From an uncultured Clostridium sp. (GTDB lineage: Bacteria > Bacillota > Clostridia > TANB77 > CAG-508), in NCBI GenBank assembly GCA_947303785.1, contig CAMYZH010000001.1, forward strand, positions 3,896 to 67,895: 64,000 nt of DNA, given 5' to 3'. The translations under genes and the position numbers were made by a program. Each line of letters opens with the position of its first letter. Positions within the stretch are counted from its first letter, which is position 1. Positions 10,565 to 39,083 of the stretch are shown here, piece by piece. The notes under the pieces are model-generated. The model made no database searches. It was not told the DNA's origin and saw only the letters and a list, made by a program, of their open reading frames with translations.

Positions 10565-12160
10565 TTACTTTATTCTTTCAAATAGTGGTTCAATATTTTT
10601 ATTTTTTAAATCTATTTCTTTTTCTAAAAAGATTGGTTCCCATTTAGTGTTTTCAATATCTAGATAATTTCTAATCTTTTCTGTTGTGCCTGGCATTATT
10701 GGTGAAAATAAATTACTTAAATTTGCAATTACTGTAGAACATGTATAAATTGTATTATTAAATTTTTCTTCATTTTCTTTTACCTGTTTCCATGGTTCTT
10801 GTGTATCATAATACTTATTAGTTTGTTCTACTAAATTCATGATTTTTGAAGTAGCTTCTCTAAATTCAAGTTTTTCAATTAAGTTTCCTACTTCATTGTA
10901 TATATTTAGAATAGTTTTTTTAATTTCTTCATCTAGAACTCCATGTTTGATTTTTTCGATTCCTTTAAATTTTAAAGTTCTATTTACTAAATTTCCAAAT
11001 TTATTTAATAATTCGCCATTATGTGTTGCAATAAAATCTTCTGGTGTAAAGTTTGTATCTTTTTTTTCTGGTCCATTGCTTACTAAATGATATCTTAAAG
11101 AATCTAATGGATAAATATCTAATGCTTCTAAGGCAGTAATTCCAATCTTTTTGCTTTTTGAAAATTTTTGATCATTATAATTTAAATATTCAGTTGAAAC
11201 TATTGTATCAACTAAGTGGAAGTTATCTTCTTGCCCTAGTAATAGTGCATTTAGAATAATACTATGGAATACTATATTGTCTTTTCCATGGCACATATAT
11301 ATTTTATTATTTCTTCCTTCTTTCCAGAAATCTTCGTAATTAAGTCCTCTTTCTTCACATACTTTCATTGTATCTGTTAAGTATCCAAGTACAGCATCTA
11401 TCCATACATACATTCTTTTGTCTTCATATCCTTCTACTGGAATTTCTACTCCCCATGTAATATCTCTAGTTACTGCTCTTTCTTTTAATCCTTGATTTAA
11501 ATATTTATGAGTTTCATTTCTTGCATTTATTCTCCATTCATGTTCAACTTTTTTGGTATGTTCTTCAATTTTTTCTTGAAATTCAGGTAGTTTAAGATAC
11601 AATATTTTATTATTTTTTTGTATTGTTGTATTTCCACAAACGATACATCTGCTTCCTACCAATTCTTCTTGAGTAGGAACGTGAAGGCAATTATCACATT
11701 GATCTCCTTTTGTTTCTTCTCCACATTCTGGACATTTTAAATAAACTTCTCTGTCTGCTAAAAATTTATTACATTTTTCACAAAAGCATTGTGGCTCTAT
11801 TTTTTCGTAAATATATCCATTATCATATAATTTCTTAAATAACATTTTAACTTTTTCTTTATGGTATTCAGTTTTTGTTGCAGAATATAAATCATATGAG
11901 AAGTTTAGTCTCTTAAATAGGTTTCTAAATTCTGTATCATATTGTGTTGCTATTTCATCTGGAGTTCTTCCTTCTTTTCTAGCTCTTTCCGTAATTGGTG
12001 TACCATGGCAGTCGGAACCTGATACAAACATTACATTATCTCCGTTTAATCTATAATATCTGGCTAAAATATCTCCTGAAATTAATCCTGCAATATGTCC
12101 TAAGTGTAATGAGCTATTGGCATATGGCCAAGCATTTCCGATTACAATATTTCTTTTCAT
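10565..12160 (-). CDS. metG: Methionine--tRNA ligase
   Basis: 531 aa with the class I HIGH motif (LHLGHI), KMSKS as KFSKSK, and Zn-knuckle cysteines (CPECG...CDNC). No C-terminal Trbp111-like domain. Confidence 0.95.
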   Translation of the reverse strand: MKRNIVIGNAWPYANSSLHLGHIAGLISGDILARYYRLNGDNVMFVSGSDCHGTPITERARKEGRTPDEIATQYDTEFRNLFKRLNFSYDLYSATKTEYHKEKVKMLFKKLYDNGYIYEKIEPQCFCEKCNKFLADREVYLKCPECGEETKGDQCDNCLHVPTQEELVGSRCIVCGNTTIQKNNKILYLKLPEFQEKIEEHTKKVEHEWRINARNETHKYLNQGLKERAVTRDITWGVEIPVEGYEDKRMYVWIDAVLGYLTDTMKVCEERGLNYEDFWKEGRNNKIYMCHGKDNIVFHSIILNALLLGQEDNFHLVDTIVSTEYLNYNDQKFSKSKKIGITALEALDIYPLDSLRYHLVSNGPEKKDTNFTPEDFIATHNGELLNKFGNLVNRTLKFKGIEKIKHGVLDEEIKKTILNIYNEVGNLIEKLEFREATSKIMNLVEQTNKYYDTQEPWKQVKENEEKFNNTIYTCSTVIANLSNLFSPIMPGTTEKIRNYLDIENTKWEPIFLEKEIDLKNKNIEPLFERIK

Positions 12161-16130: not shown

Positions 16131-17568
16131 TTTCTGTATTTAATAAAATTATTGATAATATTAAAGTACTTGCAAATGATAATGTTCCCCAGATACTAAC
16201 CATACCAACTGATTGAAGATTAATCTCTTTTCCTAATAATGTAAATACTACTGTTGTAATTATAAATGGAATTATAGATAATACAAATCTTCCAAAGCTT
16301 TCTAGTTTTTCAATTGTTCTTTCTTTATTATATAATGCTAATATTAATACAAAATTTGCTAATGCCATTAACATTATTGTAATAATTCCAGATAGTGAAA
16401 GCGTTACACCTGCATATCTGATTAGTAATAGGTGAATTGCAATATAGAATATTTCTATTAATGAGATAAATATTCCATTTATTTTGTTTTTAATAATATT
16501 AATTATTAGTACTATGGCTAATAAAACGATCGCTATAATAACTATTGTTTTTATAAAGTCACTGTTTAGATTTGAATTTATATATAGTCCTGTATTTAAT
16601 TCATATACTATTGGCATTGTATCTGTATCAACGATTATTTGTTGAAGTATACATTCATTATAATAAGTATTAAATAGCTCCATATCTTCAGATGATACCT
16701 GTTGATAAAGAGTCATTGGTAATTCAGTGTAATTTTCATCTGGTAAGAACCAAGTTGTATATTTATGTCCATCTTCTCCGTCAATTTGAACTGTTATAGT
16801 ACTTTGAACAGCGTTTCCATTTTCATCTGTTGTTTCAATATGGTTTTTAGTAATTTCTTTAAATTTCTTTTGACCTTCATTTGTAAATGATAGTCTAATT
16901 CCTAAATTATATAGGGTTTCGCCCGTATTTTCTGAACTACTTGACTGAGTATAATATGCTTGTGCTTTACTAATCATTGATTTATCCATTAATACTTTTC
17001 CTGAATCAGTATCGATTATTTCAATTTTTCCAGGTGAAGTAATAAGTTCAATTATTGAATCAGCATTATCTGTATAAGGTGTGGCTAGTGTTATTTCTCC
17101 TGTTTCTTCATTTAATCTAACACTAGAATCTGAAACCTTGTATTGATTTAATCTTTTTTCTACTATAGACTTTGATTTTTTATAATTATCCTTATTTAAA
17201 ACAGATGGGTCATTTATTGGTACTTCTTTAGTATCTTCTTCAGTTTCTTCGGAAGTATTATCAATCACATTTACTCCTTCAGTAGTATTGGCATCTTCAA
17301 TATTGTTTTCTTGATTTGTTTCATCTGTATTTTCATTTTCTTCTGTTTGCCCTTCTTCTTCCTCTACAGTTTTTGTTGATTGATCAACTGTAAATTCAAA
17401 AGTTCTAGTATTACTTAATTCTTTGCTAAGCTCATATTCTGGTAGAATATTTTTCCATATGTTTAAATCTCTTTTGTGAATTCCACAGAAAGAAACTATA
17501 CTAACTAGTATTATTATTAATATAGCAATTGCTTTAACTAGTATATTATTTAATGTTCCTTTTTTCAC
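16093..17568 (-). CDS. SecD-like membrane protein (divergent)
   Basis: 491 aa. An N-terminal anchor, a large extracytoplasmic domain with an acidic insert, then a C-terminal TM bundle. MALANFVLILALYNKER aligns to SecD GMAVDANVLIFERIKEE. Gene order D then F. Confidence 0.45.
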   Translation of the reverse strand: MKKGTLNNILVKAIAILIIILVSIVSFCGIHKRDLNIWKNILPEYELSKELSNTRTFEFTVDQSTKTVEEEEGQTEENENTDETNQENNIEDANTTEGVNVIDNTSEETEEDTKEVPINDPSVLNKDNYKKSKSIVEKRLNQYKVSDSSVRLNEETGEITLATPYTDNADSIIELITSPGKIEIIDTDSGKVLMDKSMISKAQAYYTQSSSSENTGETLYNLGIRLSFTNEGQKKFKEITKNHIETTDENGNAVQSTITVQIDGEDGHKYTTWFLPDENYTELPMTLYQQVSSEDMELFNTYYNECILQQIIVDTDTMPIVYELNTGLYINSNLNSDFIKTIVIIAIVLLAIVLIINIIKNKINGIFISLIEIFYIAIHLLLIRYAGVTLSLSGIITIMLMALANFVLILALYNKERTIEKLESFGRFVLSIIPFIITTVVFTLLGKEINLQSVGMVSIWGTLSFASTLILSIILLNTENGKKNGVEKNEK

Positions 17569-34261: not shown

Positions 34262-36043
34262 CTAAAAAGCCATATTCTCAATTTCTTCTTTAATCTTTGA
34301 AATAAAGTCTTCAAGAGGCATTTGTCCAATATCTCCTTCTTTTCTTTTTCTAACTCCTACAGCTTTTGCTTCCTGTTCTTTTTCTCCTATAATTAGCATA
34401 TATGGTGTTTTCTTAAGTTGGCCTTCTCTTATTTTATATCCGATTTTTTCTTGTCTATCATCTAATTCAACTCTGATTCCTTGTTTAATCAAACTTTCTT
34501 CTACTTCTTTAGCATAATCAATATATTTATCAGATATTGATAAAATTCTAACTTGTACAGGTGATAGCCAAAGTGGAAGAAATCCTTTTGTTTCTTCTAA
34601 TAAGAAAGCAATAAATCTATCTGATGATCCAAGAATTGCTCTGTGAATTACAACTGGTCTATGTTCTTTACCATCTTCACCAATATAAGATAAATCAAAT
34701 CTTTCTGGAAGTGCAAAATCTAATTGACATGTTGGAATTGTTACATCATGATTTAGCGCTGTCTTGATCTGTATATCAATTTTTGGACCGTAAAATGCAG
34801 CTTCTCCTTCAGCTTCATAAAAATCTATATTTAATTCTTTTAATATTGCTCTTAATTGATTTTCTGCTGTTTCCCACATTTCATCATTGTCAATGTATTT
34901 TTCTTTATTCGTTTTATCTCTTAAAGATAATCTATATTGAAAAGCTGAATGTGGAAAATTAAAATCTTTTTCATAAACTTCTGTAATTAATTGAAGTACC
35001 TTTCCGACTTCTTCTTTTATTTGATCTGGTCTTACAAAAAGGTGTGCATCATTTTGACACATTTGTCTAACTCTTTCTAAGCCGCAAACTGATCCACTAT
35101 CTTCATATCTAAAATCATGTGCTATTTCACCAATTTTTATTGGTAAATCTCTATATGATCTCATTTTGCTTTTATAAATTAACATATGATGTGGACAATT
35201 CATTGGTCTTAAAACTAGTTCTTCATTTTCCATCTTCATTACTGGAAACATATCTTCTTTGTAATGGTCCCAATGTCCTGAAGTTTTGTATAAACTTACA
35301 TTTGCAAGTGATGGTGTGTATACATGTTTGTATCCTCTAACTAATTCTTTGTCTTGAATGTATCTTTCAAGTATTCTTCTAATTGTAGCTCCATCTGGTA
35401 AATACATTGGTAGTCCAGATCCTACTAAAGGATGTGTCATAAATAATTCTAGATCTTTTCCAATTTTTCTATGATCTCTTTCTTTTGCTTCTTCTAACAT
35501 TTGCAAATGTTCTTCAAGCATGCTTGCTTTTGGGAATGAAATACCATAAATTCTTTGAAGCATTTTATTTTTTTCGTCACCTCTCCAGTAAGCACCTGAA
35601 GTTGATAATAATTTAAAAGCTTTGATAGGACCTGTTGATGGTATATGTGGTCCTTTGCAAAGGTCAGTATAGTCTCCTTGCTTATAAAAAGAAATAACTT
35701 CTCCTTCAGGTAAATCATTTATTAATTCTACCTTATAAGGCTCTCCTTTTTCTTCCATTAATTTGATTGCATCTTCTCTTGGAAGTTCGAATCTTTCAAG
35801 TTCTAAGTCTTGTTTTACAATGTTTTTCATTTCCTCTTCTATAGCTTTTAGGTCTTCTTCAGAAAATGGCTTTTCAACATCAAAGTCATAATAAAATCCA
35901 CTTTCAATTGATGGTCCAATTGCTAGTTTTGCATTTGGAAATAATTTTTTTACAGCTTGGGCCATAACATGTGAAGTTGTGTGCCAAAAACTAGCCTCAT
36001 CAACATCCATTGTTCTTCCGCCACTTAATTTGATTTTAAACAT
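34262..36043 (-). CDS. thrS: Threonine--tRNA ligase (N-terminal TGS domain largely absent)
   Basis: 593 aa. The editing-domain motif HTTSHVMAQA sits at residue ~21, and class II motifs and the anticodon-binding domain are present. A strong RBS AAAGGAGG precedes the ATG. Confidence 0.95.
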   Translation of the reverse strand: MFKIKLSGGRTMDVDEASFWHTTSHVMAQAVKKLFPNAKLAIGPSIESGFYYDFDVEKPFSEEDLKAIEEEMKNIVKQDLELERFELPREDAIKLMEEKGEPYKVELINDLPEGEVISFYKQGDYTDLCKGPHIPSTGPIKAFKLLSTSGAYWRGDEKNKMLQRIYGISFPKASMLEEHLQMLEEAKERDHRKIGKDLELFMTHPLVGSGLPMYLPDGATIRRILERYIQDKELVRGYKHVYTPSLANVSLYKTSGHWDHYKEDMFPVMKMENEELVLRPMNCPHHMLIYKSKMRSYRDLPIKIGEIAHDFRYEDSGSVCGLERVRQMCQNDAHLFVRPDQIKEEVGKVLQLITEVYEKDFNFPHSAFQYRLSLRDKTNKEKYIDNDEMWETAENQLRAILKELNIDFYEAEGEAAFYGPKIDIQIKTALNHDVTIPTCQLDFALPERFDLSYIGEDGKEHRPVVIHRAILGSSDRFIAFLLEETKGFLPLWLSPVQVRILSISDKYIDYAKEVEESLIKQGIRVELDDRQEKIGYKIREGQLKKTPYMLIIGEKEQEAKAVGVRKRKEGDIGQMPLEDFISKIKEEIENMAF

Positions 36044-36149
36044 ATAAATTCCTCCTTTGCCTTTTAATATAGGCTAAACAAAATTTATTTTAAGCTGTGC
36101 TATAGAGGGCTTTTCATGAAAATTTTAAATTTGCACCAGAATTTAAAAT

Positions 36150-36379
36150 AAAAACAAAAAGCCCCTATAAGCATTTTTAGCTTATAGGGGTAAGTTTATT
36201 TCTTACGGTTCCACCCTAATGTTTAACTCTTAACCGTTTTAACGCAACATCCACGCTTTTCTTTCGAAAAGAAACTCCAGGCTAGTTTTTCCTAAATGTT
36301 TATCAAGATTAGCTTTCAGCCGGTGACTAATCATCTCTTTTAACAACCTTTTTAGTACTTTGTCCCTTCTTCGTTTACA
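36150..36379 (-). promoter_or_regulatory. T-box riboswitch leader (Thr specifier) with intrinsic terminator
   Basis: Minus strand features: stem I AGAAGGGACAAAGTA; a specifier loop with ACC followed by G (complement of 36322-36324); the T-box sequence CATTAGGGTGGAACCGTAAG (36204-36222); and the terminator CCCCTATAAGC/GCTTATAGGGG (36161-36190) followed by a T-run. Confidence 0.85.
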
Positions 36380-36385
36380 TGTATT

Positions 36386-36414
36386 ATTTTACAATTAAAA
36401 ATTGTTTATGTCAA
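36386..36414 (-). promoter_or_regulatory. thrS/T-box promoter
   Basis: Minus strand TTGACA (36414-36409), 17 nt spacer, TAAAAT (36391-36386). Confidence 0.6.
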
Positions 36415-36546
36415 GTGTCAAATGGGACTGTCAAATGGGACGGAGGATTTTGACACTAAAATAAATACTAGCAATTCTTAATATAATATAATTATTTAAA
36501 ATAGTGTCAAAATCCTCCGTCCCATTTGACAGTCCCATTTGACACT
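36414..36546. repeat. 133-bp palindromic element: perfect 44-bp inverted arms around a 45-nt AT-rich centre
   Basis: Arm 36414-36457 (AGTGTCAAATGGGACTGTCAAATGGGACGGAGGATTTTGACACT) is the exact reverse complement of 36503-36546. Each arm contains a tandem 13-bp unit TGTCAAATGGGAC repeated twice. Confidence 0.9.
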
Positions 36547-37323
36547 ACCCTAAAGCAACATCTAATACCATCATTATAACAAACCCTATCGCAACACCAA
36601 TTGTTGCTAAATTAGAATGTTCTCCTTCTTGTGCTTCAGGTATTAATTCTTCAACAACAACATATATCATCGCTCCTGCTGCAAATGAAAGCAAATATGG
36701 TAGAACAGGTACTATTGCTTTCGTTAATAATATCGTTATTATTGCTCCAATTGGTTCTACTATTCCTGATAGTGTACCATATAAAAAGGCTTTAGTCTTT
36801 GACAATCCTTCACTCTTAAGTGGCATAGAGATTATTGCACCTTCTGGAAAGTTTTGAATTGCTATTCCGAATCGCAAGTGCAAAAGCTCCTGCCATTGTT
36901 ATTCCAGCATTTCCAAGTAGTGCACCTGCAAATGTAACTCCCACTGCCATTCCGTTCAGGGATATTATGAAGAGTAACTGCAAGGACAAGCATTGTTGTT
37001 TTTTTTAGTTCTGCCCTTATGCCTTCTGGTTTCTCATCATGTAAATGTAAGTGTGGAATTAAACTATCTAAACCTAATAAAAATAAAATACCTAAAATAA
37101 ACCCTATGGCAGCAGGAAACCAAGAAATTCTGTTTTGTTCTGTAGCCATTTCAATTGAAGGAATTAAAAGTGACCATACAGATGCTGCTATCATTACACC
37201 AGATGCAAAACCTAGTAATACTTTCTCAATACTTTTGTTAATCTTATTTTTCATAAAGAAAACCATAAAACTTCCTGCAGAAGTTCCTATAAATGGTATG
37301 GCCAAACCCAAAAACAAATTCAT
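36545..37323 (-). pseudogene. ZIP-family (ZupT/GufA-like) zinc transporter with two +1 frameshifts
   Basis: Track ORFs 36862-37323 and 36545-36883 are the N- and C-terminal parts. The conserved HNIPEGMAVGV and LAIGIAIQNFPEG motifs read correctly only if one C is removed at 36954 and another at 36869 (minus strand gaaCggaatggca and attCggaatagca). Confidence 0.8.
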
Positions 37324-37337
37324 AACTATACCTTCTT

Positions 37338-39083
37338 TTAACTATTTTTAATCTTTTTAATAATTTCATCTTTTGAAATTTTTATTGTAGTTGGTCTTCC
37401 ATGTGGACATGTATAAGGATTTTGAAGTGACAAAAGTCCTTTAATTAAATCATGAACTTCTTGTTCTTTTAAATCCATATGTGCTTTTACTGCAGCTTTA
37501 CAAGCCACTGTTGCTATAAATCTTTCTTCGACATCTTTTAAATTACTTCTTTGCCCTGTAAGCATTTCATCTAATACATCTAAAAAAATCTGCTTTGTAT
37601 CAGTTTTATATTCTAGATTTGGTATTCCGTTAATTTTAACAGAATTTTGCCCAAATGGCTCGATTACAAATCCAATAGTTTTGAATAATTCAATATTTTC
37701 TTTGATAAACTCCATTTCTTTATGTGATAAACTTAGTATTTCTGGAACTAATCTCATTTGAATATTATTACTTAAATTATCTTTATAATTTGCTTTAATT
37801 TGTTCATATAATAGTCTTTCATGAGCTGCATGTTGATCCATCAAATACAGTTCATCTCCAATTTCAATTATAATATATGTTCTAAACAAGATCCCTAGAT
37901 ATTTATAATCAATATTTCTTTTTTCTTCCCTTTTGATTAAATCATCTGCTTTTGGCAAAGTATAATTACTTTTTTCCTCTTTAATTTGCTCAGATATATC
38001 ATCAGCTTTTTTATCTGTAAAATGATTTGTTAAAAATGCATATTCATTTTCAACATATTCTTTTTTCTCCTCTTTTTCATTGTTTCCAAGAAATTGGCTA
38101 CTAAGCAGGGCATCTTTTATGGCATGGTAAAATACCTTATAAATCTTATTTTCATCATTAAATCTAACTTCCTGCTTTGTAGGATGAACATTGACATCAT
38201 AATTATCTGCTGACATTTCTAGGTTTAAAATAAAAAATCCATATTTCCCAATTCCTGTAGCTCCTTTAAAAGCTTGGTCAGCACTACTTGTTAAAACAGC
38301 ATTCCTAATATTCCTTTTGTTTAAATAAATAATTTGATCTTTTCTTGTATCTTTTGCAATTCTTGTGTTTCCCACAACTCCCTTAACTTTTATTCCTTCA
38401 AGCTCATAATCAACTTTTACAATATTTTCTTGTATTTCTTTACCATAAATTGTATAAATAATATCTTCAATTTTACCGTTTCCACTTGAATAAAATACAT
38501 TTTTTCCATCTATAATAAGCTTGAATGATACTTCAGGATTTACAAGTGCTGTTTTTTCAATCCACTCTTTAATAAATCTTGCCTCTGTAAAATCCTGTTT
38601 TAGGAATTTATATCGTACTGGCGTATTGAAGAAAAGATCTTCAACAATAATTGTGGTTCCCTGTTTTCCACCAGTTTCCTCCCTACTTAGAATATCTCCT
38701 GCAGATGCAATAATTTTATTTGCGTAATCTGAATCTTTTGTTCTAGATATTATAGTTAACTTAGATATAGCACAAATACTTGCTAAAGCTTCACCTCTAA
38801 ACCCCATTGTATATGTATTCTCAAGGTCTTCAATCTTTCTGATTTTACTTGTTGCATGTCTTTCAATTGAAAGTTCCATATCATCTTCTGGCATTCCTTT
38901 TCCATTGTCTTGTATTCGGATTAAAGATTTTCCACCTTTTTTTATTTCAACTAAAACAGATGTTGCTCCAGCATCTAACGAATTTTCAACCAATTCTTTT
39001 ACAACATTAGCTGGTCTTTCAATTACTTCTCCTGCGGCTATTTTATTAATTGTAAGCTCATCTAATTGTACAATATCTCCCAT
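37338..39083 (-). CDS. mutL: DNA mismatch repair protein MutL (endonuclease type)
   Basis: 581 aa. GHKL ATPase motifs (ELVENSLDAGA, DNGKGM, GFRGEAL), the C-terminal endonuclease motif DQHAAHERLLYE, and CPHGRP. Confidence 0.95.
   Translation of the reverse strand: MGDIVQLDELTINKIAAGEVIERPANVVKELVENSLDAGATSVLVEIKKGGKSLIRIQDNGKGMPEDDMELSIERHATSKIRKIEDLENTYTMGFRGEALASICAISKLTIISRTKDSDYANKIIASAGDILSREETGGKQGTTIIVEDLFFNTPVRYKFLKQDFTEARFIKEWIEKTALVNPEVSFKLIIDGKNVFYSSGNGKIEDIIYTIYGKEIQENIVKVDYELEGIKVKGVVGNTRIAKDTRKDQIIYLNKRNIRNAVLTSSADQAFKGATGIGKYGFFILNLEMSADNYDVNVHPTKQEVRFNDENKIYKVFYHAIKDALLSSQFLGNNEKEEKKEYVENEYAFLTNHFTDKKADDISEQIKEEKSNYTLPKADDLIKREEKRNIDYKYLGILFRTYIIIEIGDELYLMDQHAAHERLLYEQIKANYKDNLSNNIQMRLVPEILSLSHKEMEFIKENIELFKTIGFVIEPFGQNSVKINGIPNLEYKTDTKQIFLDVLDEMLTGQRSNLKDVEERFIATVACKAAVKAHMDLKEQEVHDLIKGLLSLQNPYTCPHGRPTTIKISKDEIIKKIKNS

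Follow-up and report, generated by a model that had tools for sequence, protein, structure and literature searches.

A perfect 44-bp palindrome between a ZIP transporter gene and thrS in a gut Clostridium is probably a REPIN-type element of a repeat family with a RAYT-like transposase in the same genome

A long perfect palindrome between a ZIP transporter gene and thrS is one copy of a dispersed, species-specific repeat family in the genome of an uncultured Clostridium sp. We take it, with a probability of about 0.85, to be a REPIN-type non-autonomous mobile element (REPIN, an inverted pair of repetitive extragenic palindromes, REPs) that was most likely spread in trans by a RAYT/TIRYT-type transposase (RAYT, REP-associated tyrosine transposase) encoded on another contig, C13. 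The palindrome lies in the window, a stretch of 64,000 nucleotides (C1:3896-67895) of a 108-contig draft genome of 1.66 Mb with 27.6% GC. What carries this reading is the anatomy of the element, the copy number of its family, its extragenic bias, the matched arms of its doublets, a repeat-flanked single-copy transposase gene, the co-occurrence of repeat and enzyme across genomes, and the covariation of stems across species. The novelty sits at the level of the family, which combines a loop-box REP with a helix-turn-helix (HTH)-bearing RAYT in a Gram-positive host; the copy between ZIP and thrS is an ordinary member.

A palindrome built from REP-like modules

The arms of the palindrome, 36414-36457 (AGTGTCAAATGGGACTGTCAAATGGGACGGAGGATTTTGACACT) and 36503-36546, are exact reverse complements at 44 of 44 positions around a 45-nt AT-rich centre, as an earlier note on this sequence had described. 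Each arm holds two exact tandem copies of the 13-nt unit TGTCAAATGGGAC (36416-36428 and 36429-36441, mirrored at 36519-36531 and 36532-36544), the inner copy opening a full 27-nt REP module, TGTCAAATGGGACGGAGGATTTTGACA, and the outer one being a module truncated exactly after GGGAC and fused to it head to tail (Table 1). The element carries six TTGACA hexamers, three per strand, and a seventh stands on the minus strand at its left edge. When folded as RNA or single-stranded DNA, the region 36390-36570 reaches -94.3 kcal/mol, against -33.2 +/- 3.8 for shuffled sequences (z = -16). The spacer between the arms (36458-36502) is homologous in part to spacers of further doublets (AAATAAATAC..CAAT); the similarity among the AT-rich spacers of five aligned doublets is only patchy, and it would support, weakly if taken alone, a common descent of some doublets.

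Matches of the palindrome to non-coding RNA models were also considered. Across 35500-37500 no Rfam family reaches its gathering score. The palindrome itself matches about 25 plant and animal microRNA-precursor models and the Wolbachia WsnRNA46 model at the E-value threshold (54.7 bits for 36405-36553 against WsnRNA46, whose gathering score is 65.3). We rejected these as generic long-hairpin matches, since all of them fall below gathering and several occur on both strands.

At least 89 modules of fixed length, half of them in matched doublets

A whole-genome search with the element returned 107 matching segments on many contigs (both strands, partial matches included), none of them a second copy within the window, in agreement with the earlier note. 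The 14-mer TGTCAAAYGGGACG alone occurs 77 times in the genome, and the reversed control pattern 0 times, so the element is not the single-copy simple terminator that the note had named as a refuting outcome. Using a pattern search that tolerated three mismatches in the GGGACG-containing half, we identified at least 89 modules at 53 loci, all exactly 27 nt long and of the form TGTCAAA-N-GGGACG-N5-TTTTGACA. The GGGACG box is invariant (89/89), and positions 15-19 form a variable pentamer (CCCTT, GAGGA, GGCTT, GAGCT, GTTCT and others). The stem GTGTCAAA/TTTGACAC extends into co-varying flanks (tag/cta, gtg/cac, gag/ctc), so that each module is itself an imperfect palindrome.

Just over half of the modules (46/89) are arranged in 23 convergent doublets, plus strand then minus strand, with spacers of 8-93 nt, against a single divergent pair; the remaining arrangements are 12 adjacent same-orientation (tandem) pairs and single modules. 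The partner arms are identical in 17 of the 23 doublets and differ on average by 0.30 nt, compared with 3.85 nt over all pairs of modules; none of 10,000 permutations gave so low a mean (p < 1e-4), and the variable pentamer is therefore mirrored on the partner arm. At about nine loci, the ZIP-thrS copy among them, a full module is preceded on its outer side by an additional unit that breaks off exactly after GGGAC and runs directly into it.

Some module copies lie near contig ends (C13:27-66, C6:345-371, C44:278-304 and C16:34277-34316). Such copies suggest that the repeats break the assembly, which makes 89 a lower bound. The same copies, in a draft of 108 contigs, are what would speak for the palindrome being an artefact of the metagenome assembler. 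We give this explanation hardly any credence, as the same architecture is present at 23 loci, each with unique sequence to its left and right, and recurs in independent assemblies from other samples and species.

The 23 doublets show no consistent flanking direct repeat that could be a target-site duplication. This is as expected for transposition by Y1/HUH enzymes, and it assigns the element to the REP/REPIN (HUH/Y1) type rather than to the classical miniature inverted-repeat transposable elements (MITEs) moved by DDE transposases. Known MITEs of Firmicutes, such as RUP of S. pneumoniae, Bcr1 of B. cereus and EFAR of enterococci, are palindromes of about 100-150 bp that descend from DDE-type insertion sequences or are mobilised by them, and they make target duplications. 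Like them, the Clostridia repeats are small, non-coding, palindromic and RNA-foldable, often sit beside genes and inhabit a Gram-positive genome; unlike them, they have no target duplications and are tied to a Y1/HUH enzyme. An origin in an insertion sequence of the DDE-transposase kind, its TGT...ACA termini serving as terminal inverted repeats, would suit the palindromic architecture, the TGT/ACA ends and the length of about 130 bp. We nevertheless regard it as extremely improbable, given the missing duplications, the commonness of single and tandem modules, and the fact that the only module-bracketed gene found encodes a Y1/HUH transposase. The MITE or palindromic mobile element among the options of the earlier note is thus upheld in its broad sense, by a dispersed family that flanks the only Y1 gene, and not in the sense of a classical DDE-type MITE.

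Modules sit behind genes

Seventy-two of the 89 modules lie wholly outside open reading frames (ORFs) of at least 100 aa, though such ORFs make up 88% of the genome. By a crude gene set, the loci fall into 11 convergent, 35 tandem and 2 divergent intergenic regions, where the background is 102, 968 and 104, respectively. At most loci the repeat starts 0-13 nt behind a stop codon, and in this respect the ZIP-thrS copy is a typical member of the family.

This placement is one ground for a reading in which the family consists of host-selected RNA or DNA structures at gene ends, the ZIP-thrS copy terminating or insulating ZIP transcription from the thrS promoter or protecting the 3' end of the ZIP mRNA. 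The element spans exactly from the ZIP stop codon to the thrS -35 hexamer, most members stand 0-13 nt behind a stop codon with few in divergent promoter regions, the hairpin is very stable, and REPs of E. coli have been reported to act in termination and mRNA stabilisation (PMC3733652). The transcribed (minus) strand, however, continues after the hairpin with CTTGACATAAACAATTTTT (CTTGACATAAAC) and not with a U-tract. The palindrome is for this reason not a canonical intrinsic terminator, and a consensus scan around the locus returned only the terminator of the thrS T-box (36190-36162). Moreover, 21 same-genus species lack the module and their genes manage without it, and a role at gene ends leaves unexplained both the modules around the only Y1 transposase gene and the covariation of stems with RAYT lineages. 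As a primary explanation we therefore consider it improbable; it is most plausible as a secondary, co-opted function on top of mobility. A perfect RNA duplex of 44 bp could hinder read-through or exonucleases, or be a substrate of RNase III. The binding-array and the terminator or insulator roles offered by the earlier note are conceivable as such secondary effects, and alone they cannot explain about 90 copies at 53 loci.

A single Y1 transposase gene is bracketed by the modules

The genome contains a single match to Pfam Y1_Tnp (PF01797), at C13:29704-30039 with 53.5 bits, collapsed copies being conceivable in such a draft. The 225-aa ORF that holds it is bracketed by modules at C13:29341-29367 (+) and C13:30192-30218 (-), convergent as in the doublets, and 14 modules lie within the 10 kb around the gene. 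The best NCBIfam model of the protein is REP_Tyr_transpos (76 bits), IS200 scoring only 26.7 bits, and its best sequence match in the PDB is E. coli TnpA-REP, 4ER8, with which it aligns at the HUH motif (HIH vs HMH) and the tyrosine motif (YIYDNPVKAG vs YIYINPVKHG). Residues H60, H62 and Y120 are invariant across 24 homologues. An AlphaFold2 model (predicted local distance difference test, pLDDT, 85.3) again gave 4ER8 as the top match (E = 4.7e-7, template modelling score 0.71 on target), followed by the transposases of IS608, IS200 and ISDra2. The 4ER8 structure is that of TnpA-REP bound to a REP hairpin.

Further motifs are NHIH and YIYDNP, with F-R at the W position; the Y---NP signature places the protein in class 2 of the Y1 proteins. 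Residues 159-224 form a helical tail in the AlphaFold2 model. The tail region of several homologues matches HTH_11, Sigma70_r4, HTH_23 and HTH_24, and a profile search with the genome's own 225-aa protein gave no significant HTH match. The C13 gene is likely the cognate single-copy tyrosine transposase of the repeat family.

Repeat and enzyme co-occur, and the stems co-vary

The TGTCAAAYGGGACG 14-mer is found in none of 21 same-genus genomes (0/21), and a transposase homologue occurs in one of the 21, distant and with 36% identity, the other 20 having none. A metagenomic contig with a 91%-identical transposase carries the same module on both sides of the gene. So does a scaffold with a 62%-identical transposase, which has further copies nearby and the same SpoIIP-RAYT-PGI order. 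The gene lies between spoIIP and pgi both here (C13:28501-30998) and in that scaffold (L127:8706-12119). This shared position suggests long vertical residence at one chromosomal site, despite the absence of the gene from 20 of the 21 same-genus genomes.

Uncultured gut Clostridia commonly encode members of the transposase family, for which tblastn confirmed 541 loci. In the best 80 of these 541 loci, the gene is flanked by an inverted module pair in 66, of which 53 have GGGAC. At 60 of 89 loci, GGGxC is enclosed by a hairpin stem of 6 bp or more roughly 100-140 nt upstream of the start codon, against 0/89 in coding-region controls and 0/89 in shuffled sequences. The 72 hairpins detected have 36 different stem-arm sequences, including TGTCAA/TTGACA, TGCCAA/TTGGCA, GAGTCAAAA/TTTTGACTC, TGAACTTTA/TAAAGTTCA, TGATTTT/AAAATCA and GGGGAAAAG/CTTTTCCCC, while the start of the loop, (N)GGG(G)AC(G), is constant across the differing stems. 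Such covariation of stems across species around a constant loop box is what recognition of a folded single strand would lead one to expect.

The same covariation tells against a multi-site array bound as double-stranded DNA, that is, an operator, a nucleoid-structuring or a partition-like site with TGTCAAATGGGAC units as iterons, bound by the HTH tail of the RAYT or by a host factor. The tandem exact 13-bp units, the invariant GGGACG box and the C-terminal HTH of the cognate protein family (HTH_11, Sigma70_r4 and HTH_23 matches in members) would fit such an array, and the bacterial interspersed mosaic elements (BIMEs) of E. coli bind integration host factor and gyrase. Yet the stems vary freely between species and stay self-complementary, which points to a folded single strand and not a duplex as the recognised form; the doubled unit exists at only about nine loci; the sites lack the clustering of a partition site; and promoter regions are avoided, with only 2 loci in divergent intergenic regions. 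A binding array as the main explanation seems to us quite unlikely, more so than a structure selected at gene ends.

Across the order (301 genomes), a homologue of the transposase is present in 16 of the 17 genomes that hold 8 or more copies of TGTCAAWNGGGACG, versus 99 of the 284 others (Fisher p = 1.2e-6). The repeats of these others are probably of types with different stems.

In relatives (L127:9871-9936, 10699-10764 and 17202-17267; also L050, L065, L070, L071 and L085), a truncated unit ending in GGGACA(C/G) lies on the inner side of the full module, whereas the modules of this genome have theirs on the outside.

Comparison with known systems

The closest known system is the REPIN-RAYT system, or REPtron, of Gammaproteobacteria, comprising the REPs and BIMEs of E. 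coli with TnpA-REP/YafM and the REPINs of Pseudomonas fluorescens (PMC3116915, PMC3337134, PMC5581495). Both systems have short extragenic hairpin modules in tens of copies, preferentially behind genes, inverted doublets that form long hairpins with arms matching above chance, and a single-copy HUH/Y1 gene bracketed by its own modules; both lack target-site duplications, and the best structural match of the Clostridia enzyme is TnpA-REP. The Clostridia family differs in four ways. At the hairpin foot, canonical REPs carry the tetranucleotide 5' GT[AG]G, whereas here this foot is missing and an invariant GGGACG is part of the loop. The module itself is AT-rich, with a fixed length of 27 nt. At its C terminus the enzyme is extended by an HTH domain of some 80 aa, and another residue stands where the WQ motif has its conserved Trp. 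Finally, the host belongs to the low-GC Gram-positive gut Clostridia, and the system is patchy within the genus (enzyme missing from 20/21 and repeat from 21/21 sister species).

In its architecture, the enzyme resembles the HTH-bearing group of class-2 Y1 proteins known as TIRYT (the enzymes of TIRtrons; PMC3733652), subclass 2.1 (PMC6006769) or Group 1 RAYTs (PMC5581495), an assignment that we made by motifs and architecture only. Like members of TIRYT and subclass 2.1, it is a class-2 Y1 protein with Y---NP and NHxH motifs, in a size range of about 225-240 aa, with a C-terminal HTH and a Phe at the W position; the published motifs of subclass 2.1 are NHVH or NH[YF]H, W[EQ] or FQ, and YIELNP or Y[IV]HLNP (PMC6006769). 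TIRYT genes are flanked by inverted repeats that share the box GGGGWSAS, and moderately abundant repeat families are known in a few species (Di Nocera et al. 2013, PMC3733652). The Clostridia gene is likewise single- or low-copy, with inverted flanking repeats at a roughly fixed distance and a G-rich box, (G)GGGACGG, and the moderate abundance of some TIRYT repeat families, in dimers or clusters, is a further likeness. The G-rich box reads TGGGACGG here and mostly GGGGACGG in relatives, matching GGGGWSAS at 6-7 of 8 positions with G and not A at position 7. An inner partial unit, GGGGACA(C), exists in some relatives, and this inner truncated unit fits the published TIRYT box better than the full module does. 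Unlike the published TIRYT and Group 1 repeats, the flanking repeats are here clearly self-complementary hairpins, present in at least 89 copies in 1.66 Mb, half of them in REPIN doublets.

The module also recalls the CGTC-tagged REPs (Rickettsia RPE, Neisseria dRS3; PMC3733652) in having CGTC (CGTCCC) on the opposite strand and in being extragenic and mostly in head-to-head dimers. Those REPs have an unpaired 5' tag, a stem of 8-9 bp, a loop of 4-5 nt and a CCA tail; a transposase that belongs to them is not known (PMC3733652). In the Clostridia module, by contrast, the CGTC is part of a 13-nt loop, and the genome does encode a cognate transposase. We rejected membership in this class on architecture, the tag being in the loop and not at the foot, and the resemblance is probably coincidental.

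Proposed mechanism and points on the other side

Catalysis, the site of cleavage, current mobility and any effects on ZIP or thrS expression we infer, the mechanism being modelled by analogy on what is known of E. coli TnpA-REP and IS200/IS605 TnpA (PMC6006769). The RAYT would bind a module folded as a hairpin in single-stranded DNA, read the loop through its conserved GGGACG box, then cleave and religate a single strand, leaving no target-site duplication behind. Doublets would spread as units, and the ZIP-thrS copy may have landed, or survived, between the ZIP stop codon and the ancestral thrS -35 hexamer. That the truncated units end in GGGAC and pass directly into TGTCA hints that joining may take place after GGGAC.

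From this a more specific proposal can be drawn, which we put forward tentatively and at somewhat less than even odds. HTH-bearing RAYTs of gut Clostridia (TIRYT/subclass 2.1 type) might maintain genuine REPIN populations by another recognition logic, with a free stem and an invariant GGGACG loop box instead of a GTAG foot. The TGTCAAATGGGAC-TGTCAAAT fusions might then be strand-transfer scars marking cleavage and joining right after GGGAC, and either the enzyme or selection might set modules at stop codons, the TAG of the module serving as the ZIP stop.

Several observations count against a REPIN-type element spread by the C13 enzyme. Surveys report the HTH-bearing subclass or group of RAYTs as being without REPs or REPINs (PMC6006769, PMC5581495). 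Quentin et al. 2018 give no REP-like sequences for subclass 2.1 (PMC6006769), and Bertels et al. record Group 1 in Clostridia, tie REPINs to Groups 2 and 3 only, and give about 12 genome-wide occurrences for the 16-mers flanking Group 1 genes, a weak association with repeats (PMC5581495). At the module ends the canonical foot, GTAG or GTGG, is absent. The 76 bits of the transposase fall short of the NCBIfam cut-off of 80 bits for REP_Tyr_transpos. No transposition, excision or presence/absence polymorphism was observed for any copy, and the matched arms could also come from hairpin-templated repair rather than from replication of doublets as units. At the ZIP-thrS locus, ZIP or mutL is upstream of thrS in none of the 16 same-genus genomes compared (0/16), so the synteny is broken and there is no orthologous empty site; a look-up for strain-level contigs through exact matches of threonyl-tRNA synthetase returned no match. 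Finally, one genome of the same family (G170, 1.1 Mb) has 23 copies of TGTCAAWNGGGACG and no homologue at E <= 1e-20. It may hold an orphaned repeat population or have an assembly gap; some strains of E. coli without a RAYT hold orphaned repeats.

REP/REPIN-RAYT partnerships have been studied in detail almost only in Gammaproteobacteria, and a dense population, together with its cognate enzyme, in gut Clostridia of small genome size extends the system to Gram-positives. A literature search found no description of REPINs in Clostridia, though its coverage of subscription journals was incomplete and such an absence is not proof. A second recognition design, with a loop box in place of a 5' tag, provides material for structural and biochemical study of HUH enzymes. 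The finding also accounts for many "mystery palindromes" of metagenome-assembled genomes from the gut, as well as for many of their contig breaks and odd gene ends.

The ZIP-thrS locus

The genes around the element, mutL, ZIP and thrS, are all on the minus strand. Coordinates are collected in Table 1.

Table 1. Features of the palindrome, its surroundings and related loci. Positions are those of the window unless a contig is given.
Feature	Position	Strand	Remarks
Whole REPIN-like element	36414..36546	.	two inverted 44-nt arms and 45-nt AT-rich spacer
Outer truncated unit, left arm (TGTCAAATGGGAC)	36416..36428	+	cut exactly after GGGAC, head-to-tail fusion to full module
Full 27-nt REP module, inner part of left arm (TGTCAAATGGGACGGAGGATTTTGACA)	36429..36455	+	1 of 89 genome modules
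AT-rich non-palindromic spacer, 45 nt	36458..36502	.	loop of the long hairpin
Inverted partner, full 27-nt REP module, right arm	36505..36531	-	sequence identical to left module
Outer truncated unit, right arm	36532..36544	-	mirror of left-arm unit
thrS (threonyl-tRNA synthetase)	34262..36043	-	Pfam tRNA-synt_2b, HGTP_anticodon, tRNA_SAD
Terminator-like hairpin of the T-box	36190-36162	-	consensus terminator scan
T-box leader of thrS	36183..36380	-	RF00230, 75.8 bits, E = 1.3e-16, full model length, below gathering score 93
thrS promoter, -10 TAAAAT	36386..36391	-	T-box match starts 5-6 nt downstream
thrS promoter, -35 TTGACA	36409..36414	-	abuts left arm of the element; TTGACA-17-TAAAAT match
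Split ZIP transporter gene, C-terminal ORF	36545..36883	-	Pfam Zip, profile positions 211-322
Split ZIP transporter gene, N-terminal ORF	36862..37323	-	Pfam Zip, profile positions 9-101
mutL	37338-39083	-	
Y1/HUH transposase gene	C13:29398-30072	-	225 aa
Other partial-plus-full loci	C3:63161, C13:4142, C28:14431, C13:27, C16:34277, C26:14112, C45:4053		

On the ZIP side, the right arm overlaps the stop codon of the gene by 2 nt (TAG at 36545-36547), an overlap that the earlier note had already pointed out. The commonest outer flank of the module, (T)AG, coincides at this copy with the ZIP stop codon.

On the thrS side, the leader is a real T-box, even though its Rfam score is below gathering. 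To the earlier note, the -35 hexamer next to the element, the seventh TTGACA, had looked like a partial extra copy of the repeat unit. This does not hold: 16 same-genus thrS T-box leaders without the repeat have TTGAC(A/T) at the same -35 position (two of them read CAATTGACATAACTGG), and the hexamer is therefore the ancestral thrS -35 and not a repeat unit. For the annotation of the locus, it follows that the palindrome is not a locus-specific regulatory invention of ZIP or thrS and that the thrS promoter is ancestral.

A further promoter-like match, TTGACA-16-TATTAT (11/12, by consensus only), runs from 36510 to 36483 on the minus strand toward thrS. It is composed of the inner TTGACA of the right arm and part of the AT-rich spacer. 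As each module brings two TTGACA hexamers, the repeat family could seed promoters.

The ZIP gene is split into two overlapping ORFs. The frameshift that this implies near 36862-36883 would mean either that ZIP is a pseudogene or that the draft assembly has a sequencing error there.

In the sole same-genus genome with a transposase homologue (G004, contig C5), GGGGACG...CGTCCCC palindromes (TTTTTGGGGACGTATGTGTTTTTGGTACACGTCCCCAAAAACACACACGTCCCC) stand between the T-box terminator and the ribosome-binding site of thrS. They look like a repeat type peculiar to that species which arrived in this part of the leader by an independent insertion.

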